Source of the DNA: Dehalococcoidia bacterium
GTDB lineage: Bacteria; Chloroflexota; Dehalococcoidia; UBA6926
Direction of reading: 5' to 3'
NCBI GenBank assembly: GCA_965224255.1
Contig: CBDCYO010000005.1
Coordinates: 1,107,168 to 1,171,167 of the forward strand
Length of the DNA stretch: 64,000 bases
The notes beneath the pieces were generated by a model, which worked only from the letters and a program-made list of their open reading frames with translations, made no database searches and had not been told where the DNA came from. The position numbers and the translations under genes are program-made. Each line of letters starts with the position of its first letter. The first letter of the stretch is position 1. This document shows positions 6,405 through 63,907 of the stretch, one piece after another.

Positions 6405-8891
6405 ATGAGTAACGAGATGATGGAAGATCGCACGCCGACCACCCAAACCGTCATCGACCGGTTGCAAGCTCGTGAGGGTTACGCGGAACAGATCGTTCAC
6501 ATTGAGCACATGCCTCATAGTTCCGCGGCCTTTGGCTCCACACGGACGCCGATAAACCGCCTTCTGCGACACGCACTGGAAATCCATGGAATCGACCGAT
6601 TGTACTCGCATCAGGCTGAGGCCATCGATGCCCTCACTGAGGGCCACAACATCGTCGTCGCCACCACAACCGCGTCCGGCAAGAGTCTCTGCTATAACGT
6701 GCCAATCCTGCATTCATACATGGAATCTGGCGCGTCGCCGCGTGGCGCAACCGCACTCTACCTCTTCCCCACCAAGGCTCTGGCGCAGGACCAACTTCGC
6801 GCACTGAAAGACCTGACACGCCCTCTCCCCAAACCACCCGTGACGGCCACGTACGACGGTGATACTCCGTATCAAAAGCGCGCCGCCATCCGCAAGTCTG
6901 TCCAGCTGCTACTCACGAATCCAGACATGGTGCACACGGGCATCCTCCCAAACCACAGGCTGTGGGCGCGATTCCTGCGCAATCTTCGTTTTATTGTCAT
7001 TGATGAAGGTCACGTCTATCGCGGCGTATTCGGCTCTCACGTGGCGCTGCTCATTCGGCGTCTCCTGCGTCTCTGTCGCAAATACGGCTCCGCACCGCAG
7101 CTCATTGTGACGACAGCGACCTTGGGCAATCCCAAGGAGCACGCAGAGGCGTTGACAGGCCTGGACGTGCTGGCGATCACGGAGGATGGCGCGCCAAGCG
7201 CGGGGCGGGAATTCGTCATCTGGAACCCGCCAGTCATCGAGGATGGCAGGAATCCCCCCACGACGAAGAATTCCGCGCGGCTACGGCGACGCGGAACCAT
7301 CGGGGAGGGAACGGAGCTCTTTGCACAGCTTGTTCACTGGGGAAAACGCACACTCGCATTCGTCCGCTCACGTTCCGCGGCTGAGTTGATGTATCGATAC
7401 GCGGAAGAGCGGATCGGCATTGCTCACGACGATCGAGCGGTCGCTGCGGGAAGTCATAGCGAGACGGATACGGTTGTGGCGGCAGGCGTGCCAGGGCGAG
7501 GACGCAGTCCGGTTAGTTCGTACCGAGCCGGCTACATGCCGGAAGAGCGCCGTGAAATTGAGGTGAAACTCGCAAGTGGCGAACTGACTGGCGTGGTCAC
7601 GACAAACGCCCTCGAGCTGGGCATCGACATCGGCCACCTGGATGTGACGCTGCTGAACGGCTACCCCGGGTCCCTGTCGGCCACATTTCAGCAGGCGGGC
7701 CGATCCGGTCGGCGTACGGATCGCGGGCTATCAATCATGGTGTTGAACGACAATCCGCTTGATCAGTACTTGGGCAAACACCCGGATATCCTGTTTCGGC
7801 GTGGAATGGAGCACGCCCGCATCTCCACCACCAATCCCCGCATTCTTGATCCTCACGTCATATGCGCAGCCTTTGAGGCTCCTCTCGGCTCAATCCCAGG
7901 GGACATCGACATGTTCGGCGGGGACGATGTGGCGTCCGAGGCCCTTGAACGTCTTGCAGAGGCAGGATTATTGACCAGGAGGCTGCACGGAGATTCAGTG
8001 TTGTGGCACCTGCACCCGAAGGCTGGTGGGCATCCCGCCGGGGACATCAACCTGCGCGCCACGTCCGGCGCACGCTATACCCTCGTCAATGAGGCAACGG
8101 GACTGATACTGGAGGAGGTTGATGAACCACATGCTTTCATGAATGCCCACCCTCATGCTGTGTACCTGCATCGTGGCGAAGAGTTTGAAGTCACGGCCAT
8201 GAATTCTGAAGAGCAGCGGATCATGCTGAAGCGTGTCCCCAGCCCCTTCTACACCGTCTCGACGGCGCACACTGAACTATCGATCACTGGAGAACGACAA
8301 CACACGGAAGGGCGTGGCGCCCGCATCGCGCTGGGCGAAGTGGAAATAACGCGGACGATGAATGAGATGACCCGTCTGCGTCACTATTCCAATGAGGAGT
8401 ATCGGAACCCAACAGACGCGAATCACCCACCACGCGAGCCCATTGACCTGCCTCCGCGCAGCTTCAACACCGTCGCCCTCTGGTGGACTGTGCAGAGCGA
8501 TATGATTGACGCGCTCACTTGCCAAGGAGTCAGTGTTGTCGGCGCGCTCCACGCCCTCGAACATGCCTGTATCAGCCTATTGCCGCTGTTCGCACTATGC
8601 GACCGCGCGGACATCGGCGGTATTTCGACAGACCATCACCCGGACACAGGTGAGGCAACAATCTTCATCTACGATGGCTCGCCGGGTGGCGTCGGAATCG
8701 CTGAGCGCGGGTATGAGGTCATCCGGGACCTCTGGGAGGCAACCCTCGCCATGCTCGGCGAATGCCCCTGCACGGAGGGCTGCCCATCATGCGTGCAGTC
8801 ACCCAAGTGCGGGAACAACAATGAACCACTGGACAAACGTGGAGCGCGCCTGCTGGTCCAAGGCATACTGGACGACAACCCGCGCCCGTGA
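6405..8891 (+). CDS. MrfA/SftH-like DEAD/DEAH-box helicase with C-terminal DUF1998 (Zn-binding) domain
   Basis: Helicase motif I VATTTASGKSL, motif II FIVIDEGHVY, motif VI QQAGRSGRR; C-terminal cysteine cluster CPCTEGCPSCVQSPKCGNNNE typical of DUF1998/MrfA_Zn; start trimmed to Met after the MITE core (ORF opens at 6243). Confidence 0.8.
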   Translation: MSNEMMEDRTPTTQTVIDRLQAREGYAEQIVHIEHMPHSSAAFGSTRTPINRLLRHALEIHGIDRLYSHQAEAIDALTEGHNIVVATTTASGKSLCYNVPILHSYMESGASPRGATALYLFPTKALAQDQLRALKDLTRPLPKPPVTATYDGDTPYQKRAAIRKSVQLLLTNPDMVHTGILPNHRLWARFLRNLRFIVIDEGHVYRGVFGSHVALLIRRLLRLCRKYGSAPQLIVTTATLGNPKEHAEALTGLDVLAITEDGAPSAGREFVIWNPPVIEDGRNPPTTKNSARLRRRGTIGEGTELFAQLVHWGKRTLAFVRSRSAAELMYRYAEERIGIAHDDRAVAAGSHSETDTVVAAGVPGRGRSPVSSYRAGYMPEERREIEVKLASGELTGVVTTNALELGIDIGHLDVTLLNGYPGSLSATFQQAGRSGRRTDRGLSIMVLNDNPLDQYLGKHPDILFRRGMEHARISTTNPRILDPHVICAAFEAPLGSIPGDIDMFGGDDVASEALERLAEAGLLTRRLHGDSVLWHLHPKAGGHPAGDINLRATSGARYTLVNEATGLILEEVDEPHAFMNAHPHAVYLHRGEEFEVTAMNSEEQRIMLKRVPSPFYTVSTAHTELSITGERQHTEGRGARIALGEVEITRTMNEMTRLRHYSNEEYRNPTDANHPPREPIDLPPRSFNTVALWWTVQSDMIDALTCQGVSVVGALHALEHACISLLPLFALCDRADIGGISTDHHPDTGEATIFIYDGSPGGVGIAERGYEVIRDLWEATLAMLGECPCTEGCPSCVQSPKCGNNNEPLDKRGARLLVQGILDDNPRP

Positions 8892-8899
8892 GGGGGCCG

Positions 8900-9140
8900 T
8901 ATCACTCTGAAACGCAGCGTTAGCGACCCCTATGTCATTCTGAACGAAGCGTGCCCTCGCATGTCATTCTGAACGGAACGTGACCCCACCATGTCATTCT
9001 GAACGGAACGGAGTGAAGTGAAGAATCTAACGCGCCTCTGCCGCAGTGGGGACATGGATTCTTCGTTGTGCTCAGAATGACAGGGAGCGCTCAGAATGAC
9101 GGGGAGCGCTCAGAATGACAGGGAGGGTGGCTCAGAATGG
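8900..9140. repeat. MITE/REP-like modular palindromic element (3 left arms catgtcattctgaacgNaacg, hairpin core gtgaagaatctaacgcgcctctgccgcagtggggacatggattcttcg, 4 right arms gcgctcagaatgacagggag)
   Basis: Direct reading of tandem arm repeats and the inverted repeat gaagaatc/gattcttc in the core. Confidence 0.8.
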
Positions 9141-9828
9141 CAGAGTGGCGGCTGGTGATGTGCACGGAGGGGTAATCATTCAAACGCGCCCGGTCCAGAT
9201 TAGTTCCTCGGACGGCATCGCCCTGGAAGGACAGCTTGACCTGCCTGATGGGTCCACACCACCAACCGCCGGCGTCGTCGTCTGTCATCCACATTCCCAG
9301 TACGGAGGTGAGATGACAAATAACGTTGTGACCGCAATAGCCTCCGCCATTGTCACGCACGACTTTGCGGCACTGCGGTTCAACTTCCGTGGCGTGGGCC
9401 GCAGCACCGGCACGTACGGAAACGGCATCGGTGAACAGGACGACGCGCTTGCGGCGCTGGGCGCGTTGAAGAACGCGGCGGGTGTTGGGCGTGTCGCACT
9501 AGCGGGCTATTCATTTGGCGGTGGTGTTGCCCTGAGGGCCGCAGGTCGAGTGGGTAGCCTTGCTGCGTTGGCGCTCATCTCACCCGCGATAAGTGATGAC
9601 CAGGAGCAGGACGCCTACGCCGCGCTAGTGATGCCCAAGCTCATCGCAACCGGCGAGGCAGACGACTATGCGAGTATCGAGCGTGTACGGGATCTAGCGG
9701 CCATCCTGCCGGGCGTGACGGAACTCTACATCTCGCCGCAGACCGATCATTTCTGGTGGGGTGAAGAGGACAACCTCGCCCGTCGTGTCGGAGAGTTCCT
9801 GGCCTCGGCGTTTCGTCGAGGTGCGTAG
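9115..9828 (+). CDS. alpha/beta hydrolase fold protein (start uncertain, N-terminus overlaps MITE arm)
   Basis: VVCHPHSQYGG...LAGYSFGGGVALRAA (GxSxG nucleophile elbow) ...PQTDHFW; alternative GTG starts at 9145/9160. Confidence 0.65.
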   Translation: MTGRVAQNGRVAAGDVHGGVIIQTRPVQISSSDGIALEGQLDLPDGSTPPTAGVVVCHPHSQYGGEMTNNVVTAIASAIVTHDFAALRFNFRGVGRSTGTYGNGIGEQDDALAALGALKNAAGVGRVALAGYSFGGGVALRAAGRVGSLAALALISPAISDDQEQDAYAALVMPKLIATGEADDYASIERVRDLAAILPGVTELYISPQTDHFWWGEEDNLARRVGEFLASAFRRGA

Positions 9829-9999
9829 CGATGACAGGAAACCCGAGCCCGAGCAGAAGCGCGCTGAACTCACGGAGGATGAGTGAATGCTGCAGGCACA
9901 TCCAGATGTTACGCGGCTTGATGAGGAACTTGGCAGCGCGCTGGCAGCGCGCCCCGTTCTGCGTCAAGGCTTGGCACCGCTTTTTTGGAACAGCCATCG

Positions 10000-10527
10000 C
10001 TACCCTGTCGGTTCAGCCCAGAAAGCCACGCATCCATCCTCTTCCTTTTCGATTAGCAGGACGTCGGCGGTACCTGCCACCCTGCCGCCGGATGCGTTCT
10101 TGGCGGTGAAGTCGACGGCCACGTAGTTATGGTAGCTGCTCCTACCACCCGCGCGCTTAATTGTGAACTCGAATACTGGTATCATCTCCTCCTCCTCCTC
10201 ATCCTCCACCGCTGCGCTGAGTTTCTCGAGGTAGGAAACATTCCAGATACGATCCGGATTCTGTATCTCATTGTTCAGGAAGAGTAGCGTATCCCGCTTG
10301 CTGGACTCGAATGTGGACTCGCTTTGTGGTGTCATGTCGAGGAACTCGTAGGATCCTGGGTCGGCCAGCAAATCCTGGATGGCACTTCTGGTCGACAAGC
10401 TCAAGTGGTGGCTAGTCCTGAACTTCTCCCCGACGGTAGGGCATGGCTGCGGCGGCGGGGTCTCACACTCCGTCTCCGCTGCGCCCATCATGACGATGAT
10501 GACCAGTACAAATAACAGGTACCTCAT
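10000..10527 (-). CDS. secreted acidic hypothetical protein on a low-GC patch
   Basis: N-terminal signal peptide MRYLLFVLVIIVMMGAAE, Glu-rich block EDEEEEEM; local GC clearly below window average, suggesting foreign origin. Confidence 0.5.
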   Translation of the reverse strand: MRYLLFVLVIIVMMGAAETECETPPPQPCPTVGEKFRTSHHLSLSTRSAIQDLLADPGSYEFLDMTPQSESTFESSKRDTLLFLNNEIQNPDRIWNVSYLEKLSAAVEDEEEEEMIPVFEFTIKRAGGRSSYHNYVAVDFTAKNASGGRVAGTADVLLIEKEEDGCVAFWAEPTG

Positions 10528-12187: not shown

Positions 12188-12380
12188 GTGTACATGTCAT
12201 TCTGAATGGAACGCAGTGGAGTGAAGAATCTAACGCGCCTTTGCGGCTGTGGGGGACGTAGATTCTTCGCTACGCTCAGAATGACAGCAGGGCGCTCACG
12301 AATAACAGCAGGGGCATGCGGGCTAGCGGCGCAGAAGGGCCCGCGGGCTAGCACGGAAGAGCGCTCAGAATGACAGGAAG
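12188..12380. repeat. MITE/REP-like element (core gtgaagaatctaacgcgcctttgcggctgtgggggacgtagattcttcgctacgctcagaatgacag plus flanking arms)
   Basis: Same core hairpin and gctcagaatgaca arms as other copies. Confidence 0.8.
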
Positions 12381-12452: not shown

Positions 12453-13295
12453 CTACACCCCCAGGAACTCCCGGGTTGCGGCGATGAACTCCCGCGGCTT
12501 GTCGACCGTGACAACGTGGCCTGCGTTCGGCACGTCGACCCATGAAAGGTCTTTCGCCGCCGCGATCATCTTCTGCTTGAGCGTCTCATCGAGCAGGGGG
12601 CTCTCCAGTCCGCGAACCTCCAAGATTGGCTGCTCAATCGTCCCCAACGCCTTCCAGTAGCGGTTGATCAGTGTCTCATCAGTGCCGTCGGCGAGCGGGA
12701 CGGTGAAGAGCGCGGTATCCGCCTTCCATGTCCATGAGCCATCCGACGCCTGCCTGAGCTTCTCTTCCATGTCCTTTCGGAGCCGATCGTCTGACGCCCA
12801 CGGGTTATTGGAGCGAGCCCACGCGATGCCCTCGTCGAAAGTACTGAAGGACATCGGCGTCGGTGGGCGATCGCCCCATTGTGCCTTGGCTGTCTCGCTT
12901 GATTCTGGCCCAATATCGACAATCACAATACGTTCCACCTTTTCCGGGTGCTTCTCACCTGTATAAAGCAGAGAATGCCAGCCGCCCATGGAGAGGCCGA
13001 CAAGCACGAATCGGTCAAAACCCAGCGCAACGACAAGCTCGTCAAGATCCTCGACAAATCGATCCCGCGCATAGCCCGTCGATGCGTGCCCGCTCTCACC
13101 GTGTCCGCGCTGATCAACGGTGATGACGTGGAAATGTGGCGCCATCGCCTCCGCGAACTCATCCCAGATATGAGCTTGCCCCGTGTGGCCGTGCAGGCAC
13201 ACCATGGGCATCTTGCCCTCTGTCCCATAGTCGAAATAGCGAAGCGTCACTCCGTTGACGGTGACGTGCTTTTCCTGCGCTTGCGTGATGGTCAT
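12453..13295 (-). CDS. alpha/beta fold hydrolase (MhpC-like)
   Basis: VCLHGHTGQAHIWDEF...VLVGLSMGG (GxSxG) ...PNAGHVVTVDKPREF. Confidence 0.8.
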   Translation of the reverse strand: MTITQAQEKHVTVNGVTLRYFDYGTEGKMPMVCLHGHTGQAHIWDEFAEAMAPHFHVITVDQRGHGESGHASTGYARDRFVEDLDELVVALGFDRFVLVGLSMGGWHSLLYTGEKHPEKVERIVIVDIGPESSETAKAQWGDRPPTPMSFSTFDEGIAWARSNNPWASDDRLRKDMEEKLRQASDGSWTWKADTALFTVPLADGTDETLINRYWKALGTIEQPILEVRGLESPLLDETLKQKMIAAAKDLSWVDVPNAGHVVTVDKPREFIAATREFLGV

Positions 13296-13505
13296 TTCAT
13301 CCTCCTCTGTCCGGCTGTTCGCACGACCCCAGCTGCCGGCCTCAGTATTGTAGCAAGGGCGGGGACTGAATGGCGGAGCGCACGCGCACCCATTTCCTAG
13401 TGCCGATGGGGCACAGCGTGGTCAGCGCCGGTATCGTGCGTTGACGCTGTGAACAAGCGCTCCTATCCTGAGCATGGCTGCGGCCGGGAATATAGTGAGG
13501 AAGCC

Positions 13506-44654: not shown

Positions 44655-44681
44655 GGCGACAGTATACGCCGGGGTGTTTAG

Positions 44682-45220
44682 CCGGAACGCGGCGCGCGAA
44701 CGACATGGGCACGATACGGCGAGTCGCGACGTTCAGAAAAGCCGGAACGCGGCAAGCGAACGACACGGGCACGGCACGGCGAGTCGCGACGTTCAGAAAA
44801 GCCGGAACGCGGCGCGCGAACGACATGGGCACGATACGGTGAGTCGCGACGTTCAGAAAAGCCGGAACGCGGCAAGCGAACGACATGGGCACGATACGGC
44901 GAGTCGCGACGTTCAGAAAAGCCGGAACGCGGCGCGCGAACGACATGGGCACGGTACGGCGAGTCGCGACGTTCAGAAAAGCCGGAACGCGGCAAGCGAA
45001 CGACATGGGCACGATACGGCGAGTCGCGACGTTCAGAAAAGCCGGAACGCGGCGCGCGAACGACACGGGCACGATACGGCGAGTCGCGACGTTCAGAAAA
45101 GCCGGAACGCGGCAAGCGAACGACATGGGCACGGTACGGCGAGTCGCGACGTTCAGAAAAGCCGGAACGCGGCGCGCGAACGACATGGGCACGATACGGT
45201 GAGTCGCGACGTTTAAAAAG
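44682..45220. repeat. tandem array: 9 x 60 bp (alternating two variants, so 120-bp higher-order period)
   Basis: gccggaacgcggc[gc/aa]gcgaacgaca[t/c]gggcacg[at/gc/gt]acgg[c/t]gagtcgcgacgttcagaaaa repeated head to tail; no unique spacers. Confidence 0.95.
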
Positions 45221-45452: not shown

Positions 45453-46970
<1,518 letters not shown>

Positions 46971-56660: not shown

Positions 56661-56689
56661 CCCGCCCGCCCTTCCGTCATTCCGAGCGT

Positions 56690-56975
56690 CTCTTGTCAGT
56701 GGTGCCCGCCGCCGTGTGATTCCGGGTGCTGTCACCCCTGAGCGCCCTTCTGGCATTCTGAGCGCAGCGAAGAATCTATGTCCCCACTGCCGCATACGCG
56801 CAAGAGCACGCACGGGTTTAGATTCTTCACTTCACTACGTTTCGTTCAGAATGACATGGGCGGGGTGGCCCGCCGTTCAGAATGACAAGGTGGTGGCCGT
56901 GTTCCGTTCGGAATGACAGAGTGCTGCTGCGCATCCGTTCAGAATGACATGGTTGTGCTACGCATCCGTTCGGAA
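56690..56975. repeat. MITE/REP-like element (orientation B core cattctgagcgcagcgaagaatctatgtccccactgccgcata...gtttagattcttcacttcactacgtttcgttcagaatgaca plus 4 degenerate arms)
   Basis: Direct reading. Confidence 0.8.
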
Positions 56976-56984
56976 TGGCAGGTA

Positions 56985-57130
56985 GAGAGTGCCCGCGCAT
57001 GTTGGCGCGCAGGCCGCGCTCAGCGGCAGTGCACTGTGTCAGGTGGAGAGTGCCCGCGCACGTTGGCGCGCAGGCCGCGCTCAGCGGCAGTGCAATGTGT
57101 CAGGTGGACCCGCGCACGTTGGCGCGCAGC
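56985..57130. repeat. tandem array ~2.3 x 63 bp (gtgcccgcgcaYgttggcgcgcaggccgcgctcagcggcagtgcaMtgtgtcaggtggaga)
   Basis: Shares the core AGCGGCAGTG..GTCAGGT with the fabI-leader arrays; directly abuts a MITE. Confidence 0.85.
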
Positions 57131-57131
57131 C

Positions 57132-57488
57132 TTACACAGCGCGACGGCTGAACGCGTCTTCCGTATCGAGCCTGGCGTACGTCTCCACGCCCAATTCGGT
57201 GGGTCGGTAGCGACGCATGAAGCCCCGCTCCTCCCCCTCCACTTCCTCGATGAAGCCCCCCTCAATCAACGCGCGGGCGATCATCTCGCCCATGTAGCCG
57301 CCCGCCGGCAGCAGGTGACCGCCCATCGGCGCGCCCGTCGAGGCGAACGTTCGGCAAATATCACGCAGCGCCTGCGCCGCTTCAATCATCATGCTTTCCA
57401 TGACGCGCGTCACCACGGGCGTCCCGCGGACGACTCCGACGAAGTCATCAAATGCTGGCACGTATCCCTCCGTCAGGGTTCTTCTCAC
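57132..57488 (-). CDS. hypothetical protein
   Basis: 118-aa ORF, no motif recognised. Confidence 0.35.
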   Translation of the reverse strand: MRRTLTEGYVPAFDDFVGVVRGTPVVTRVMESMMIEAAQALRDICRTFASTGAPMGGHLLPAGGYMGEMIARALIEGGFIEEVEGEERGFMRRYRPTELGVETYARLDTEDAFSRRAV

Positions 57489-57655
57489 CGGCGTCTTGGC
57501 GTTAATGTCGCCTTCTCAGGCCGGTCATTTGGGGGGCCATGGTCGCCGGGTCACACAGGGCGGCCATGCTGCTCAGTGTATTATAGGCGCTTTCACGGGG
57601 TGAACGTGGACGCAGACGACAGCGTCGCCGCCGCCCACGATTCGAGGTCCGGTGA

Positions 57656-58942
57656 ATGTCCTCAGTGCAACCCGAGGAGACGCAGCACGAAGTCCGTTCA
57701 GATGCGCGGAGTGCGCCCACGTCCTTCCTGGGAGCGCTCGCCGTCGCCAACTTCCGTACCTACTGGTTCAGCGCCATTTCCTTTGTCCTGGGGTGGCAGA
57801 TCCTCCGCATCGTCCTCGCCTGGGAGGGCTATGAGCTGACCAAATCGGAGTTCTACCTCGGCCTGCTCGGCCTCGCCATGGGGCTCGGCACGGTCAGCGT
57901 TAACCTCATCGGAGGCGTCGCGGCCGACCGTGTCAGCAGGCTCGCCCTCCTCATCGTCACCCAGATCAGCATGACGATCGCCGTGACCATCCTCATGGTG
58001 TTGACCTTTGGCCACATCCTCGCCCCCTGGCATCTCCTGGCGGCCTCGGCCGCCATCGGCATCATTCAGGGCATCGATCAGCCCACGCGTACCGCCGTGA
58101 TCCCCGCGCTCATTCCGGACCGGCGACTCCTCATGAACGCGCTCGCGCTGGGCTCCTCCGTGTGGCAGGGGACGCGAGTGTTCGGGCCGGGACTGGGCGG
58201 CGTCCTGATCGAGCTTGTCGGCTCCGCCATCACCCTCGGGACGGTCACCATCGGATTCGGACTGGGCACGCTCATGCTCTTCTTCGTCCGCATACCGCGG
58301 GCGGTACGACAGCCCGGCAACGTCATCAGAGAACTTGTGGACGGCCTGATGTTCATCGCGAGGCGCAATCTCTTCGCCAGCCTGATCGCGCTGACGTTTG
58401 TGGACAGCTTCTTCGGTGTGGCCTACATCCAGCTCATGCCCGTCTTCGCCACAGACATCCTGAAGATTGGCGCGAACGGCATGGGACTGCTGATGGGCGC
58501 ATCGGCTGCCGGCGCCCTGGTGGGCACATCACTGGCCGCATTCTGGGTGAAGGGGAGATGGCCGTTGATTCTGCTGCTGGGCGGCGCGGGGCTGTTTGGC
58601 GTGATGGTCGTCATCTTCGCCCTCAGTCAAATCCTCTGGCTCTCCCTCGCCGCGCTCTTCCTCTCCGGAACCTTCAACTCGCTGTCGCAGATCACCAACC
58701 TGACCCTGCTCCAGAGCGCCGTGCCGGAAGAACTGCGTGGCCGCGTCATGGGGGTCTTCAGCCTGACCTACAGCCTCATCCCATTGGGCGGTTTACAGGT
58801 CGGCGCGCTGGCCGAGTGGACGAACACCCCGACGGCCGTCGCCATCGGAGGCACCATCGCGGCCCTCTTTGCCGTTCTCCTTGCGCTCAGAACCGGCTTC
58901 GCCCGCGCTGTCCGACAGGCCGCCCGCACCGCCGCGGGCTAA
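57656..58942 (+). CDS. MFS transporter
   Basis: 12-TM profile, 428 aa. Confidence 0.75.
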   Translation: MSSVQPEETQHEVRSDARSAPTSFLGALAVANFRTYWFSAISFVLGWQILRIVLAWEGYELTKSEFYLGLLGLAMGLGTVSVNLIGGVAADRVSRLALLIVTQISMTIAVTILMVLTFGHILAPWHLLAASAAIGIIQGIDQPTRTAVIPALIPDRRLLMNALALGSSVWQGTRVFGPGLGGVLIELVGSAITLGTVTIGFGLGTLMLFFVRIPRAVRQPGNVIRELVDGLMFIARRNLFASLIALTFVDSFFGVAYIQLMPVFATDILKIGANGMGLLMGASAAGALVGTSLAAFWVKGRWPLILLLGGAGLFGVMVVIFALSQILWLSLAALFLSGTFNSLSQITNLTLLQSAVPEELRGRVMGVFSLTYSLIPLGGLQVGALAEWTNTPTAVAIGGTIAALFAVLLALRTGFARAVRQAARTAAG

Positions 58943-58974
58943 CCCCGGCTGGCGTGCGTGCCGCCAAGCGGCAG

Positions 58975-59240
58975 TGGCCCCATGCCATTCCGAACCCCTT
59001 GTCATTCCGGAGCACCCTTCTATCATTGCGCCCGTGTCCATGCCATTCCGTGGCCCCCCCGGCATTCCTGAGGTCCCCCTCCTGTCATCCCTGAGCGTAG
59101 CGAAGAATCTACGTCCCCATTGCCGCAGGGGCACAACACCACACGCACGGCCTGACACACGCGTTTAGATTCTTCACTCCGCTGCGCTCCGCTCAGAATG
59201 ACAGGGCGAAGTAACGTTCCGTTCAGAATGGCATGGTGGT
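58975..59240. repeat. MITE/REP-like element, left copy of the composite flanking the R-M fusion gene
   Basis: tgtcatccctgagcgtagcgaagaatctacgtccccattgccgcaggggcacaacaccacacgcacggcctgacacacgcgtttagattcttcactccgctgcgctccgctcagaatgacagggcgaagtaacgttccgttcagaatg; nearly identical to 62560-62720. Confidence 0.85.
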
Positions 59241-59261
59241 CGTGTGCCGATCGCAGCACTG

Positions 59262-59447
59262 ATGGTAGGACGCGGCGTGCCTATAAAGCCAAGCGGCAGT
59301 GTCAGGTTTAAAAAGCCGCACTGGTGGTAGGACACGATGTGCCGATAAAGCCAAGCGGCAGTGTCAGGTTTAAAAAGCCGCGGTGGTGGTAGGACGCGAT
59401 GTGCCCAAAGGAGCCAAGCGGCAGTGTCAGGTTTAAAAAAGGGCGCG
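59262..59447. repeat. tandem array 3 x 62 bp (fabI-leader unit tggtggtaggacRcgatgtgccgataaagccaagcggcagtgtcaggtttaaaaaRccgc)
   Basis: Each unit ends with GTGTCAGGTTTAAAA = GTG-S-G-L-K, the start of fabI; third copy carries aaggag like the functional fabI RBS; last copy overlaps the 3' end of the R-M gene. Confidence 0.9.
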
Positions 59448-62414
59448 GGCATCACGAGGGCGCGGTTTGCCCCCATGCACGGACGGCTCCGCGCACCACT
59501 TCTGCGCCAACCGACGCACTCCCCGATACACCTCCTCATCGAAGCCGAGGAGGTCCATCACCACACGCCTGTCCAGCTCATCACGACTCGGATCCGCGTC
59601 CGCCAGATACGCCGGCAAAAATTCCTTATCCCGGAAATCCTCGAAGATCATCTGCGCCATCAGCAACTGGTCATCACTCAATAACCGCAAGTCCAGAACG
59701 GGAAGACTTTCGGCGGATAGGTGAGAAATACTCCCGCGTCCGCTCTGCTGGCGGGTGGAGTGCCACCAATATGACACCAGACCCAGAGTCGAGTTGCCCC
59801 ACAGGGTGAAGGCGTAATCGAATCGCCTATCTGCAAATATGGCGTTAGGCCACGCTCTGCCGCCAATGGACTCGACTTCTGTGAATGCGGCTGCCAAAGG
59901 CTGCGAGTTGAATCGGAAGTCACAATTTACGTGAGCACGGCTAGCGGTAGCCCAAACAGTCGCGGCCTTCGCTTCCATGCCCTGCCTGACAAGCAGCTGG
60001 GAATCGGGCTCCACGACCATGCGCGTTTCCTTCGTGGCGTCATGGTTCCAGAGGGAAGGATAGGTCGCAGTGGGGCTAGAGTGTGCTCTGTCGAAGGGGC
60101 CCGAAGAACCAGCGATGTTCAGGTGATACCATCCACGCCTACCGATGTCGCTGAAGGCTGCTACCTGTAGCTCTACAGAGGAGCCTACGCCTGGGAGCCA
60201 CAGCCGTGAGCGCGCCAGCGCATAGGCGGTCTGAGCCAGAGAGGAGTCGGCCAGCCGCACCGCGCTCCAGCTTTCCCCATCCAGACCGACCGGGGCAGTA
60301 ATTGTCTCGCCTACCAACGCCTCCCCGACTGTGAGGGGCGTGCCGCCGTAGGGTCCGTCCTCGATCTGTCTGACCTGGCTGCCGTCCAACAGCCTGCCCG
60401 CCAGTGCACGTGCGTGCGCCAGCCCCTGAGGTCTGTTGCCAAAGGAGGCAAAAAGCGAACGCTCGTGAGGGGGAGGGGGCGTTTTAAGCTTTTGCGCAAT
60501 GACCAAGCATTCCGCCATTCCGGTATCGGACGAGAAGGACATGTCCCGACCGTTGGCCGCGATACTCAGGACGGTCATGTCCTCATAGTCACGGGCGAGC
60601 ATCGTCCTAAGCTTTTCCCATGACATACCGTTGGCAGCTGTAAGGGGAATCACCAGCGCTAGGACGCCGCCGGGCTTGATTTTCCGATGTGCTAGCGCCG
60701 CAAATGCGGAGGGGATCCCCGCGTTGCCGTGGTAGCTGGAAGCCCTTCCAAGACGATTAATGCGGTCCCCCATCTCCGTCTGGTCGGCACGTGTGCTGTT
60801 AAAGGCAGCGAAGGCAGGATTCGTGATGTCGAAGTGGGCGCCCTCATGGTTAGTTGCTCTCGTAAAGGGCGGGTTCATGATGACAAGGTCGAGGCTCTCA
60901 TCGGGGATGTCGGCGTACACGTTCTCCGATACTTCTTCCGTCGCTCCGCCAACGCGCATCGCCGGGCCGCCGCCCGCGTGCGTCAGCGTTACGGCCCTGC
61001 TCCCCGCCAGAAACTCCAGAGAACCCAGCTTGACGCTGCCATCGGGCTGGCGGCCATAGGGCATCGTATAGAGTCGGGATGTCGAATACGGAACGGTTGG
61101 CTCCATACCCGCAAGTGTCGCGGCGGTGATGTGGACGGCGGAGGGCATGACGTCAAAGCCCATAAGGACGTTCTCCATCATCGCACCGTGAAGGTCCTGC
61201 GGGTCGCCCCCCGTCCGCGCGTTTTGCCGGGCAATCTCCGCGTACACCGCGGAGAGGAGCGCCCCAGTGCCGCACGCGAAGTCAGCGATGCGCAGCGCGC
61301 CGATGGCCTCGGCATCGGACCAGTCCACGCCCTCCAATTTCGCGACGGCAAGCTGCGCAAGCAGCGCAGCGGACGCTGGCCGCGTGTAGAAGGTGGCGAG
61401 GTACTTGCGATCCGCGATCAGGCGCTGAAAGACGCGGCCCGTCAGGTCGTGCGCATTATCGATGCCGGCGGCGTGGACGTAGTTACCGGTCTCGCTGAGG
61501 ATGCGGATCACGCGCGCGGCGGGCTCGGCGGGAAGGCATTCGATGATGCGTCGCGCGATGTCGAAAATGGGAAAGTAATTGATCTCCAGGATGCGATTCC
61601 ACATCGCAATCAGCTGAGCGTTGGGCGTTCCGGAGCGCTCGATTGCAGACAGGGTCATGATGTCTGCGTCCGGATGCATGCCGACGATCCGCTCATGGAA
61701 GACCATGGCGTTGGCGACAATCGCCGCGGCCATGCGTCGCGTCTGCTCCACGTTCTCCATGCCGAGAACGCGGGCAATTTCGATGTTGATGGCGGGACGC
61801 GTCCCGTTCAACTCCGTGAGCACGGCCGCGGCGTTATCGATGCCACGCTCAAGGTTCTCGGCGGCCTCGTCCACGGCCCGTTGCGGCACGGACACCAGAT
61901 GCGCCATGTCAGCGAGGTCCTCGATGGCGCCGTCCAACCAACCCGCCTCGGGGAAGCGCACTTGCCGTTGGTTATTTCTGGCGCCTTCATGCGTCCAGAT
62001 GACATACGACAATTTGGCCTTACGCAGCTCCTGCGCGACATCGCCGGCGGCATCACGCAACTCTGCCGGGTAGCGCACGGCGATGACGACCTCGATCTCA
62101 CGTGCGCCTTCCGTCGTGCGGAGTCCGAGTCGAGCGCGCGCGTCGTCCTCAACGGTGCGGGCGGGCATGAATTCCGCCTCGATGGCGACCGGCGACCTGC
62201 CGTTCATAGTGACGAGAATGTCCGGGCGACGCCGTGGCTGCCCGCTGACGACGTCCGTTTCTTCTGCGGCGACGTTTGATCGCGGCAACATGGGGCGCAG
62301 GGCATCCGCGAGCGTGGTATTCAGAGTGGGCTCAGTGTGGGCCATGGCGGGATTAGTGTAGCGCACAGCCGCGCCCCCGCAGCATCCCTGGCCGCCCTTC
62401 CTGTCAGTACTCAC
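59433..62414 (-). CDS. single-chain Type IIG/IIL-like restriction-modification fusion protein (gamma-class N6-adenine MTase with N-terminal nuclease-like domain and C-terminal TRD)
   Basis: Motif I IADFACGTGALLSAV, motif IV VIMNPPFTRATN (NPPF); N-terminal RRPDILVTMNGRSPVAIEAEF resembles PD-x(n)-E-x-(K) nuclease core but lacks the Lys; 993 aa, size/architecture like MmeI-family enzymes. Confidence 0.65.
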   Translation of the reverse strand: MSTDRKGGQGCCGGAAVRYTNPAMAHTEPTLNTTLADALRPMLPRSNVAAEETDVVSGQPRRRPDILVTMNGRSPVAIEAEFMPARTVEDDARARLGLRTTEGAREIEVVIAVRYPAELRDAAGDVAQELRKAKLSYVIWTHEGARNNQRQVRFPEAGWLDGAIEDLADMAHLVSVPQRAVDEAAENLERGIDNAAAVLTELNGTRPAINIEIARVLGMENVEQTRRMAAAIVANAMVFHERIVGMHPDADIMTLSAIERSGTPNAQLIAMWNRILEINYFPIFDIARRIIECLPAEPAARVIRILSETGNYVHAAGIDNAHDLTGRVFQRLIADRKYLATFYTRPASAALLAQLAVAKLEGVDWSDAEAIGALRIADFACGTGALLSAVYAEIARQNARTGGDPQDLHGAMMENVLMGFDVMPSAVHITAATLAGMEPTVPYSTSRLYTMPYGRQPDGSVKLGSLEFLAGSRAVTLTHAGGGPAMRVGGATEEVSENVYADIPDESLDLVIMNPPFTRATNHEGAHFDITNPAFAAFNSTRADQTEMGDRINRLGRASSYHGNAGIPSAFAALAHRKIKPGGVLALVIPLTAANGMSWEKLRTMLARDYEDMTVLSIAANGRDMSFSSDTGMAECLVIAQKLKTPPPPHERSLFASFGNRPQGLAHARALAGRLLDGSQVRQIEDGPYGGTPLTVGEALVGETITAPVGLDGESWSAVRLADSSLAQTAYALARSRLWLPGVGSSVELQVAAFSDIGRRGWYHLNIAGSSGPFDRAHSSPTATYPSLWNHDATKETRMVVEPDSQLLVRQGMEAKAATVWATASRAHVNCDFRFNSQPLAAAFTEVESIGGRAWPNAIFADRRFDYAFTLWGNSTLGLVSYWWHSTRQQSGRGSISHLSAESLPVLDLRLLSDDQLLMAQMIFEDFRDKEFLPAYLADADPSRDELDRRVVMDLLGFDEEVYRGVRRLAQKWCAEPSVHGGKPRPRDARALF

Positions 62415-62765
62415 GCCCCCCGTGTCACTCCGGGTGCTGCATCGCCATTGCGCATGCCCCCGTCATTCCTGAGCGTCCCCTCTGTCATTCGTGAGCGCCC
62501 GTGTCCATGCCATTGTGGGTGCTTCAGTGTCATCCGTGAGCGCCCCTCTGTCATTCCTGAATGCCGTCGTCTGTCATTCTGAGCGCAGCGAAGAATCTAC
62601 GTCCCCATTGCGGCAGAGGCGAACCACCACACGCACGGTCTGACACACGCGTTTAGATTCTTCACTCCACTACGTTCCGCTCAGAATGACAGGGCGAAGT
62701 AACGTTCCGCTCAGAATGACAAAATGGGGAACGCGCCGTTTACAACGACATGGTGAAGTGGCGTG
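62400..62765. repeat. MITE/REP-like element cluster (6 left arms + orientation-B core + arms), right copy of the composite
   Basis: Direct reading; core 62575-62700 near-identical to 59085-59215. Confidence 0.85.
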
Positions 62766-62794
62766 TCGTTTAGAATGGAAGGGTGGTCGTGTGC

Positions 62795-63150
62795 CGATCG
62801 CAGCACTGGTGGCAGGACGCGATGTGCCCATAAAGCCAAGCGGCAGTGTCGGGTTTAAAAAACCGCGGTGGTGGTAGGACACGATGTGCCGATAAAGCCA
62901 AGCGGCAGTGTCAGGTTTAAAAAACCGCGGTGGTGGTAGGACACGCTGTGCCGATAAAGCCAAGCGGCAGTGGCAGGTTTAAAAAACCGCGATGGTGGTA
63001 GGACACGATGTGCCGATAAAGCCAAGCGGCAGTGTCAGGTTTAAAAAACCGCGATGGTGGTAGGACGCGATGTGCCGATAAAGCCAAGCGGCAGTGTCAG
63101 GTTTAAAAAAGGAGCTAAGCGGCAGTGTCAGGTTTAAAAATAGATCTCTC
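62795..63150. repeat. tandem array ~5.7 x 62 bp (fabI-leader unit) ending in the genuine fabI RBS/start
   Basis: Same unit as 59262-59447; final partial unit gives aaggagctaagcggcagGTGtcaggtttaaaaatagat = RBS + GTG start of fabI. Confidence 0.9.
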
Positions 63151-63907
63151 TGGCAAGAACGCCGTCGTTCTCGGCGTGGCGAATCACCGCAGCATCGCTT
63201 GGCACATCGCCCTGGCGCTCCGCGATGCCGGCGCGCGACTCTACCTCACCTATCAGAACGAGCGACTCGGTGACGGCATCCGCAAGCTGACTGAGGGCAT
63301 GGACGCTATCACCCTCATCGAGTGCGACGTGTCCGAGGACGCGAACATCGAGGCAGCGTTCGATCAGATAGCCGCGGACGGCGGGAAGACAGTGGACATC
63401 CTGACGCACAGCATCGCCTTTGCGAATCGCGACGATCTCGGTGGCGATTTCTCGCAGACCGGGCGTGAGGGCTTCCGCATCGCCCTGGAGGTCAGCGCCT
63501 ATTCACTCATCCCCGTCGCCCGCTACGCCGCGCCACTCATGTCCCCGGGCAGCGCCATCGTCACGCTTACCTTCCAGGCCTCAGACCGCGTCTTCCCCGG
63601 CTACAACATCATGGGTACGGCCAAGGCGGCTCTGGAGAACGAGGTTCGCCAACTGGCCTATGAGCTTGGGCCCCGCGGTATCCGCGTCAACGCCCTCTCT
63701 CCGGGCCCACTGGATACGCTCTCATCACGCGCGATCCACGGCTATGTGGACATGAAGCGCATCCAGGCGGAGCGCTCGCCGTTGCAGCGCAACATCACGC
63801 ATGATGAGGTGGCCAAGGCGGCGCTCTTCCTGCTGAGCGACCTCTCGAGCGGCATCACGGGCCACGTCCTGCCCATCGACGGCGGCTACCAGATCGCCGG
63901 CGTCTAG
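63125..63907 (+). CDS. fabI: enoyl-[acyl-carrier-protein] reductase (NADH), FabI
   Basis: LSGKNAVVLGVANHRSIAWHIA (FabI N-terminal Rossmann), catalytic Y...K (YNIMGTAKAALE), SPGPLDT; GTG start 11 nt after aaggag. Confidence 0.85.
   Translation: MSGLKIDLSGKNAVVLGVANHRSIAWHIALALRDAGARLYLTYQNERLGDGIRKLTEGMDAITLIECDVSEDANIEAAFDQIAADGGKTVDILTHSIAFANRDDLGGDFSQTGREGFRIALEVSAYSLIPVARYAAPLMSPGSAIVTLTFQASDRVFPGYNIMGTAKAALENEVRQLAYELGPRGIRVNALSPGPLDTLSSRAIHGYVDMKRIQAERSPLQRNITHDEVAKAALFLLSDLSSGITGHVLPIDGGYQIAGV

Follow-up and report, generated by a model that had tools for sequence, protein, structure and literature searches.

A restriction–modification gene between two direct copies of a repeat block upstream of fabI in a Dehalococcoidia bacterium

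How does a single restriction–modification (R-M) gene come to stand between two direct copies of a long composite repeat, one of which reaches into the start of fabI, the gene for enoyl-ACP reductase? The question is raised by a 64-kb stretch of contig CBDCYO010000005.1 from a Dehalococcoidia bacterium (the whole stretch of 64,000 nt is called the window, and coordinates given without the name of another locus refer to it). In it, the gene for a 970-aa Type IIG-like enzyme is bracketed by two blocks, each made of a miniature inverted-repeat transposable element (MITE) followed by an array of 62-bp units, the whole lying in the spacer between fabI and the gene for a transporter of the major facilitator superfamily (MFS). 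The two flanks are paralogous copies of one MITE-and-array block in direct orientation. On balance, we lean toward a history in which the R-M gene was inserted, with a long duplication of the target, into a spacer in which the MITE and the array were already present.

Results

The Flanks of the Enzyme Gene

The features of the locus are the following.

58984-59233, plus strand: left MITE, with arm sub-repeats at 58984-59090 and hairpin core at 59077-59233
59235-59440, plus strand: left junction and array of three 62-bp units (Tandem Repeats Finder, unit table and alignment)
59409-59413 and 59424-59426, plus strand: AGGAG and GTG of a fossil fabI initiation region in the left terminal unit
59433-62345, minus strand: 970-aa R-M gene, its stop and last two codons within the array end
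62354-62359, minus strand: -10-like TACACT, 8 nt upstream of the ATG of the enzyme gene
62444-62781, plus strand: right MITE cluster, with expanded arm sub-repeats and hairpin core at 62565-62721
62722-62780: 59-bp arm insertion specific to the right copy, carrying TAGAAT at 62771-62776
62782-63140, plus strand: right junction and array of about 5.4 62-bp units
63125-63907, plus strand: fabI (Pfam adh_short_C2, E 3e-79; NCBIfam FabI models), right anchor of the hotspot described below
57656-58942, plus strand: MFS transporter gene (Pfam MFS_3/MFS_1, E 4e-27), left anchor of the hotspot
58963-58978, plus strand: fragment of the 62-bp unit core, GCCAAGCGGCAGTGGC, outside the duplicated block and just left of the left MITE

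The repeat parts that an initial annotation had described around the enzyme gene are present, far above chance, with small corrections to their coordinates. Tandem Repeats Finder reports a period of 62 on both sides, with 3.0 copies at 59256-59439 and 4.9 copies at 62807-63110, the latter continued by a half unit to 63140; the 28-nt core of the unit, AGCCAAGCGGCAGTGTCAGGTTTAAAAA, occurs nine times in the window, confined to the two arrays, with none expected in shuffled sequences. The arm motif of the MITE, CGCTCAGAATGACA, is found 38 times in the window against 0.64 expected, the hairpin folds with a z score of -2.4, and its inverted-repeat arms are detected. As is usual for MITEs, the elements are short and multicopy, have terminal inverted repeats that form a hairpin and are without a transposase; their ends are blurred by the arm sub-repeats.

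That these flanks are copies of each other, and not independent MITE insertions beside unrelated arrays, is borne out by direct-repeat pairs, alignment, BLAST and the identity of the MITE cores. BLAST joins 58984-59440 and 62444-62986 in one colinear span (E 1e-106), with a high-scoring segment pair of 183 nt in the arrays (91.8%, E 5e-73), and direct repeats pair 59091-59233 with 62579-62721 (143 nt, 92%) and 59185-59405 with 62732-62952 (221 nt, 88%). Taken in full, the flanking repeats cover 58984-59440 and 62444-63139, each more than 30 bp long and in direct orientation, and the longest exact match between the two blocks is 55 nt. The MITE cores are, as had been noted, closest to each other in the window: they are 90.8% identical over 152 nt (left core against 62571-62721), whereas the next best copy, at 56745-56894, reaches 74-77%. 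The shared junction sequence is likewise present at both flanks, from 59235 and from 62782, the latter about 10 nt away from where it had been placed, and both copies end in the same phase and with the same initiation region, AGGAGC(C/T)AAGCGGCAGTGTCAGGTTTAAAAA. Relative to the left copy, the right one has extra arm sub-repeats, the 59-bp insertion and about 2.4 more units. Each array also has variants of its own, AAAAAG-CCGC on the left and AAAAAA-CCGCG on the right, which points to expansion or homogenization within each array after the split.

The 5′ End of fabI

The initial annotation had the array running straight into fabI; the two do adjoin, but the Shine–Dalgarno (SD) sequence and the start codon of fabI lie inside the last half unit, which supplies AGGAG at 63110-63114, the GTG start at 63125 and codons 2-5. 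With the AGGAG 10 nt before it and an in-frame TAA three codons upstream, GTG 63125 is the only usable start. Homology to the fabI genes of relatives begins at codon 6 (ATA GAT CTC), the sequence upstream being that of the array, and tblastn matches to relatives start at residue 5-6. All of the relatives compared (22/22) begin fabI with ATGTA(T/C)-NNN (Met-Tyr-Ser/Pro) followed by (I/V/L)DL, and about 17 of the 22 have a CTACAATAG-like -10 box within 150 nt upstream; for fabI of the window, neither an ATGTA(T/C) start nor such a box was found. Judged by this comparison, the array has replaced the native promoter, ribosome-binding site and start codon of fabI. The same derived sequence, AAAGGAGCCAAGCGGCAGTGTCAGGTTTAAAAA, stands in the terminal unit on the left, which indicates that what was duplicated was a fabI initiation region already made of array sequence. 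In the left copy, this terminal unit is kept at full length; the right copy would since have lost about 31 nt between runs of A.

The fabI 5′ untranslated region is, more generally, a sink for repeats. In L086 (relatives' loci are given by such numbers), the fabI leader (reverse strand, ~9757-9950) holds a short tandem array of units of about 23 bp, GGACGCGGGGGAGACAGGTCTA, and many relatives carry small hairpin MITEs, GGATTCCCGC...GCGGGAATGAC, between the fabI -10 box and the ATG. The 62-bp unit itself was considered as an amplified piece of the ancestral fabI leader, and this was rejected, its local alignments to the leaders of 12 relatives being without significance (z scores of at most 1.8). 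In the left block, the fossil ribosome-binding site and GTG open an 86-codon frame (59424-59684, plus strand) that runs antisense to the last part of the enzyme gene; were the block active as a promoter, antisense RNA or translation from this frame could result.

The Spacer in Relatives

The MFS–fabI spacer is a defense hotspot with cargo that varies between species; neither this nor the replaced promoter and start of fabI had been seen in the initial annotation. We compared about two dozen species-level relatives, several of them from sponge or coral metagenomes, whose FabI is 86-91% identical; the MFS protein of the window is 73-82% identical to its counterparts and syntenic with fabI. No genome of the same species was found in the collections searched, the MFS protein being at most 80-82% and the enzyme at most 64% identical. 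The order of MFS gene and then fabI is conserved, and the spacer between them ranges from 134-137 bp (L023, L021 and L003) up to 4.4-4.9 kb. Its contents include a Bpu10I-type endonuclease accompanied by a methyltransferase (L005), a NotI-type endonuclease together with a D12-class methyltransferase (L015; in L024, ORFs match these in size, their contents unscanned), a PLDc_2-Mrr_N protein (L017), a GHKL ATPase with a radical-SAM protein (L007), a DUF6884 protein (L004; again with ORFs of the same sizes, contents unscanned, in L010), a DUF1828/DUF6978 protein with a DUF433/DUF5615 toxin–antitoxin pair (L084) and a NotI fragment with PLDc_2 (L083).

Two of the relatives show duplications at this same site. 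In L084, a 907-bp cassette with the DUF433/DUF5615 toxin–antitoxin pair lies between two 99-bp copies, 99% identical, of the fabI promoter and first 24 codons (12193-12291 and 13199-13297), a fresh event. In L002, the duplicated segment spans the fabI leader and part of its 5′ coding sequence (9031-9260 and 9923-10152; 230 bp, 92% identical) and flanks about 660 bp with a 135-aa retropepsin-like open reading frame (ORF; Asp_protease_2). Small retropepsin-like ORFs recur near the locus in L083, L085 and L086.

The two more distant relatives L085 and L086 (MFS protein 75%, FabI 88.6% and a neighboring 118-aa protein 60-63% identical to those of the window) hold a homolog of the enzyme, 63% identical, in the same spacer and the same orientation, with 31-36 bp from the MFS stop to the enzyme stop. 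Their fabI keeps its native promoter and start, and no direct repeats flank the homolog, which indicates that the repeats are not part of the cassette. The initial annotation had named two observations that would speak against its reading: the same gene in relatives without flanking repeats, which these two loci present in part, with their 63% homolog, and unrelated flanks, which the homology of the blocks excludes.

A second hotspot lies 2 kb upstream, beside the gene for the 118-aa protein, which is the conserved gene there (minus strand, 57132-57488; 76-83% identity in relatives); an overlapping 308-aa ORF on the plus strand (56913-57839) was rejected as spurious. Homologs of the enzyme are found in this second hotspot in L083 and L015, and a Type ISP enzyme in L082. 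A BglII-type endonuclease with an N6_N4 methyltransferase occupies it in L085 (16045-17653) and L086 (16146-17754), the latter having nearby a giant protein with an Eco57I domain, a PIN protein and an SNF2/PLD protein; defense genes are dense around the locus.

Two further arrays were noted in the window. At 56670-57129, in the neighboring hotspot, where relatives have R-M genes, a MITE cluster is followed by 2.5 units of 61 bp that share AGCGGCAGTG with the 62-bp unit and abut the stop of the 118-aa gene. The other, at 44680-45220, is a very regular array of nine 60-bp units (93% matches) that lies downstream, by about 235 bp, of the solitary 16S rRNA gene carried by the minus strand at 45456-46966; its last unit ends with GTTTAAAAA, like the 62-bp units, its overall similarity to the 62-bp unit not being significant. 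As relatives of the 62-bp array, the 61-bp and 60-bp arrays were rejected, the similarity being marginal or absent (z scores of 2.1, 1.3 and -0.7).

The Enzyme Gene

The insert between the repeats, about 3 kb in size, consists of a single ORF, and an ORF and Pfam scan of it found no mobility gene. An ORF of 993 aa, as originally described, does exist from a GTG, but the N termini of homologs put the start at ATG 62345, which gives 970 aa; compared with the homologs, both ends of the gene are native. At the 3′ end, the final two codons and the TAA stop are array sequence, and the tail is shorter than that of the homologs in L085 and L086. The protein belongs to a well-conserved family of about 967 aa with thousands of members, its best non-self match in the protein collection being 64% identical. 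Its N-terminal domain has a predicted PD-(D/E)XK fold and is followed by a gamma-class m6A methyltransferase and, at residues ~500-700, a variable region.

Labeling the enzyme Type IIG-like is reasonable, being backed by both the methyltransferase motifs and the nuclease fold. Motifs I (DFACGTG, residues 355-361) and IV (NPPF, residues 491-494), in the order I then IV, are invariant in 39 homologs, of which 33 match the Pfam Eco57I model, the protein of the window itself reaching the MTS model only; PADLOC and NCBIfam add weak matches to Type II, Type IIG, PglX and MAD2 methyltransferases. The account of its nuclease fold lists Hjc resolvases, BsaWI and NgoMIV. Invariant D42, E56 and E58 stand where PD...ExK is expected and would form a triad D42...E56-x-E58, which is not ExK, and the nuclease function of the N-terminal domain is putative. 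The methyltransferase and C-terminal parts of the model of the enzyme are of low confidence. The source annotation provided no family name, the plasmid homologs being labeled only "N-6 DNA methylase" or hypothetical.

In the window and in L085, L086, L083 and L087, the gene is solitary, with no separate specificity or restriction partner gene. What its homologs at other sites share with it upstream is only about 20 nt, including the TACACT (window, L085, L086, L083 and L087, in four contexts), and the moving unit would thus be essentially a promoter and an ORF. The G+C content at third codon positions (GC3) is 0.735, the genes of the host having 0.70-0.85. The protein is a mosaic: in residues 1-500 and 800-970 it groups with homologs from Dehalococcoidia, whereas residues ~500-700 (60245-60845 in the window) are 76% and 68% identical to the P0002/P0010 group against 45% and 42% to the Dehalococcoidia group, a pattern suggestive of an exchange of the target-recognition domain (TRD).

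Homologs elsewhere have repeats and duplications of their own. On the TARA scaffold L087 (6037-6260), a homolog with the same TACACTAGTTCTGCCATG 5′ flank is solitary at an unrelated site, and two small hairpin MITEs directly upstream are translated into a false N-terminal extension of the called protein. In an unrelated genome (L001), the last 214 bp of a homolog are duplicated about 1 kb downstream (8685-8898 and 9737-9950), surrounding a 230-aa ORF without a Pfam match; here, the same style of insertion has affected the enzyme gene itself.

Discussion

Of the two histories proposed in the initial annotation, insertion of the R-M gene into a pre-existing array upstream of fabI, with duplication, fits the locus best, given the shared phase of the two copies, the outlying core fragment and the events in L084 and L002; we hold it to be probable, by a modest measure. 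We infer the following order of events. The 62-bp array would have come to lie in the spacer, overwriting the promoter, leader and first three codons of fabI and then giving it an SD sequence and a GTG start, and the hairpin MITE would have landed in the array. A cassette of about 3 kb, made of a single Type IIG-like gene with its -10 box, would next have been inserted at fabI codon 5/6, and the insertion would have duplicated about 460 bp of the spacer, with MITE, array and fabI initiation region included. An intact copy would thereby have remained with fabI, and the left copy, joined to the enzyme gene at its 3′ end, would have become a fossil that supplies the last two codons and the stop of that gene. 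The copies may finally have diverged by expansion of the array, the 59-bp arm insertion and the 31-nt deletion in the last right unit.

The fragment at 58963-58978 is an exact 16-mer of the unit at 62959-62974 (z score of 8.3 against shuffles) and lies outside the block, to the left of the MITE, which suggests that the array is older than the arrival of the MITE in it and that the left edge of the duplication is near 58980. Because fabI is presumably essential, insertions at its 5′ end would survive only with a duplicated target. Homology-facilitated illegitimate recombination and single-crossover integration are established processes, and either is a candidate for the mechanism; if the DNA came from a related strain, the 8-12% divergence of the copies would reflect donor and recipient alleles rather than age. 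Insertion of R-M genes with long target duplication was reportedly described by Nobusato et al. in 2000.

Several observations weigh against this history. A genome with an empty site, that is, with a single composite block, was not found among the relatives; the core of the unit is absent from 80 related loci, and a 22-nt core is absent from the JGI metagenomes. Relatives without the enzyme gene have unrelated sequence in the spacer, with no 62-bp core, and L085 and L086 have a homolog at this site, oriented alike, without the repeats, so the gene could be ancestral here and the left block a later addition. Furthermore, the copies have diverged by 8-12%, the left boundary of their homology is ragged (~58984 against 62444), and the composite copies were counted within the 64-kb window, the rest of the 1.72-Mb contig and of the genome possibly containing more.

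The homologs in L085 and L086 also speak for the enzyme gene being an old resident of the spacer, standing there 31-36 bp from the MFS stop. On such an account, the block arose between the gene and fabI and was later copied to the other side, either by a tandem duplication of gene and block followed by the loss of one gene or by ectopic copying of the block. The GC3 of the gene, 0.735 within the host range of 0.70-0.85, and the grouping of its backbone outside residues 500-700 with Dehalococcoidia homologs agree with long residence. At least two rearrangements would be needed, however, the array-core fragment at 58963-58978 would be left unexplained, and the nearest host groups (MFS protein 76-82% identical) are without the gene in the spacer and have other cargo there, L083 and L015 holding the homolog in the neighboring hotspot instead. 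For the number of its steps, the outlying fragment and the cargo of the nearest hosts, we rank this account lower and regard it as possible but doubtful. It is also conceivable, and in our view unlikely, that the composite of MITE and array, with GGTTTAAAAA as its right end, is itself mobile or prone to copying and landed twice, with the gene between the copies by chance, a situation that forms the third class of Furuta et al. (2010; see below). The third composite at 56670-57129, with AGCGGCAGTG in its 61-bp units and its place at the neighboring hotspot, the GTTTAAAAA ending of the 60-bp array at 44680-45220 and the MITE copies near the L087 homolog would fit a mobile element. Yet the 62-bp core is found in only two arrays within the window, neither the 61-bp nor the 60-bp unit resembles the 62-bp unit significantly (z scores of 2.1 and 1.3), no target-site duplications are visible and the left terminal unit has the derived AGGAG of fabI, which is expected of a copied initiation region and not of an independent insertion. 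Finally, repeats are classic sites of misassembly and the contig is metagenome assembled; an artefact is nevertheless scarcely credible, as the copies are of unequal length and mismatched at many positions, each junction is unique in sequence, with two ORFs preserved intact, and comparable structures exist in the independent assemblies of L084 and L002.

The second history of the initial annotation, a cassette that homologous recombination between the repeats could excise, thereby acting as an on/off switch, holds only in part. With direct repeats matching exactly over up to 55 nt, and with any crossover leaving fabI a complete initiation region, it is fair to say that the cassette can be lost. 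Recombination would mean loss and not switching, however: the deletion is irreversible unless the gene is acquired anew, the divergence of 8-12% and the array-specific variants argue against frequent exchange, the copies having not been homogenized, and relatives keep the homolog without repeats. We therefore consider it very unlikely that the flanking repeats serve as a recombination switch turning R-M off, and possibly on again, in the population.

A role of the arrays in expression is as speculative. The block could be a portable 5′ module that drives fabI and initiates its translation, with the duplicate, which faces the 3′ end of the enzyme gene, firing antisense transcription to tune the enzyme, and with the pair serving as homology handles by which the hotspot can be exchanged; the ~60-bp arrays at the neighboring hotspot and next to the 16S gene would then fall into a common class of elements for expression or recombination, built on arrays, in the lineage. 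We give this idea little credence. No Rfam family matched the arrays, the folds of the units are unremarkable (z scores from -0.8 to -1.1) and a consensus scan found neither a sigma-70 promoter nor a terminator in the arrays; a manual scan picked out one -10-like hexamer per composite, TAGAAT at 62771 in the right and TATCAT at 59021 in the left.

Nothing in these analyses points to a new kind of system, and the locus has its value elsewhere. It documents a compact defense hotspot anchored on an essential gene, and it suggests that repeat DNA can take over the promoter and start codon of such a gene while the gene stays intact. For the origin of long target duplications, the window and the fresher events of L084 and L002 make a natural test case.

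Parts of the locus resemble several known systems. Pneumococcal BOX elements, with their tandem boxB units, and the Correia elements of Neisseria are intergenic repeats that alter the expression of neighboring genes, and the block shares with them a small hairpin repeat and tandem sub-units in intergenic DNA near gene starts. Unlike in those elements, the array lies outside the hairpin, is not known to occur in many copies in the genome and supplies the actual start codon of the downstream gene, its role as a promoter being putative. The enzyme resembles Type IIG/IIL enzymes such as BpuSI, MmeI, Eco57I and DrdV in being solitary and in the order of its parts, a predicted PD-(D/E)XK fold at the N terminus, a gamma-class m6A methyltransferase (FxGxG, then NPPF) and a variable C-terminal part; it differs in its marginal similarity to characterized enzymes and in a putative triad that is not ExK, and its activity is putative. 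In defense hotspots with allelic substitution, too, the same core pair, here MFS and fabI, flanks unrelated R-M or toxin–antitoxin cargo. Here, by contrast, the substitution is seen across uncultured Dehalococcoidia species and not among strains of one species, and no integrase is associated.

The closest precedent is the insertion of R-M genes with long target duplication, without other mobile elements, described by Furuta, Abe and Kobayashi (2010; PMC2853133), who distinguish it from two further classes, site-specific integration and a chance location between repeats, and also give Type IIG examples and TRD variation. As there, the insert has no integrase or transposase and is far smaller than 20 kb, and the direct repeats are much longer than the target duplications of transposons and consist of local chromosomal sequence. 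The key criterion there is a genome with an empty site; the analogous events in L084 and L002 support the reading here only indirectly. The examples of its Table 2 have repeats of 46-47 bp that are nearly identical, whereas those of the window measure ~460-700 bp, are 8-12% diverged and consist of a MITE and a tandem array that includes the start codon of an essential gene. Read in this way, the locus is a new example of R-M insertion with long target duplication, in a new phylum, and the explanation is mostly conventional; it would add the uncultured Dehalococcoidia (Chloroflexota) to the groups, mainly proteobacteria and a few other phyla, in which this mode of R-M mobility is known. Its unusual part is the duplicated target, a MITE and array that, from the comparison with relatives, had taken over the promoter region and start codon of an essential gene.

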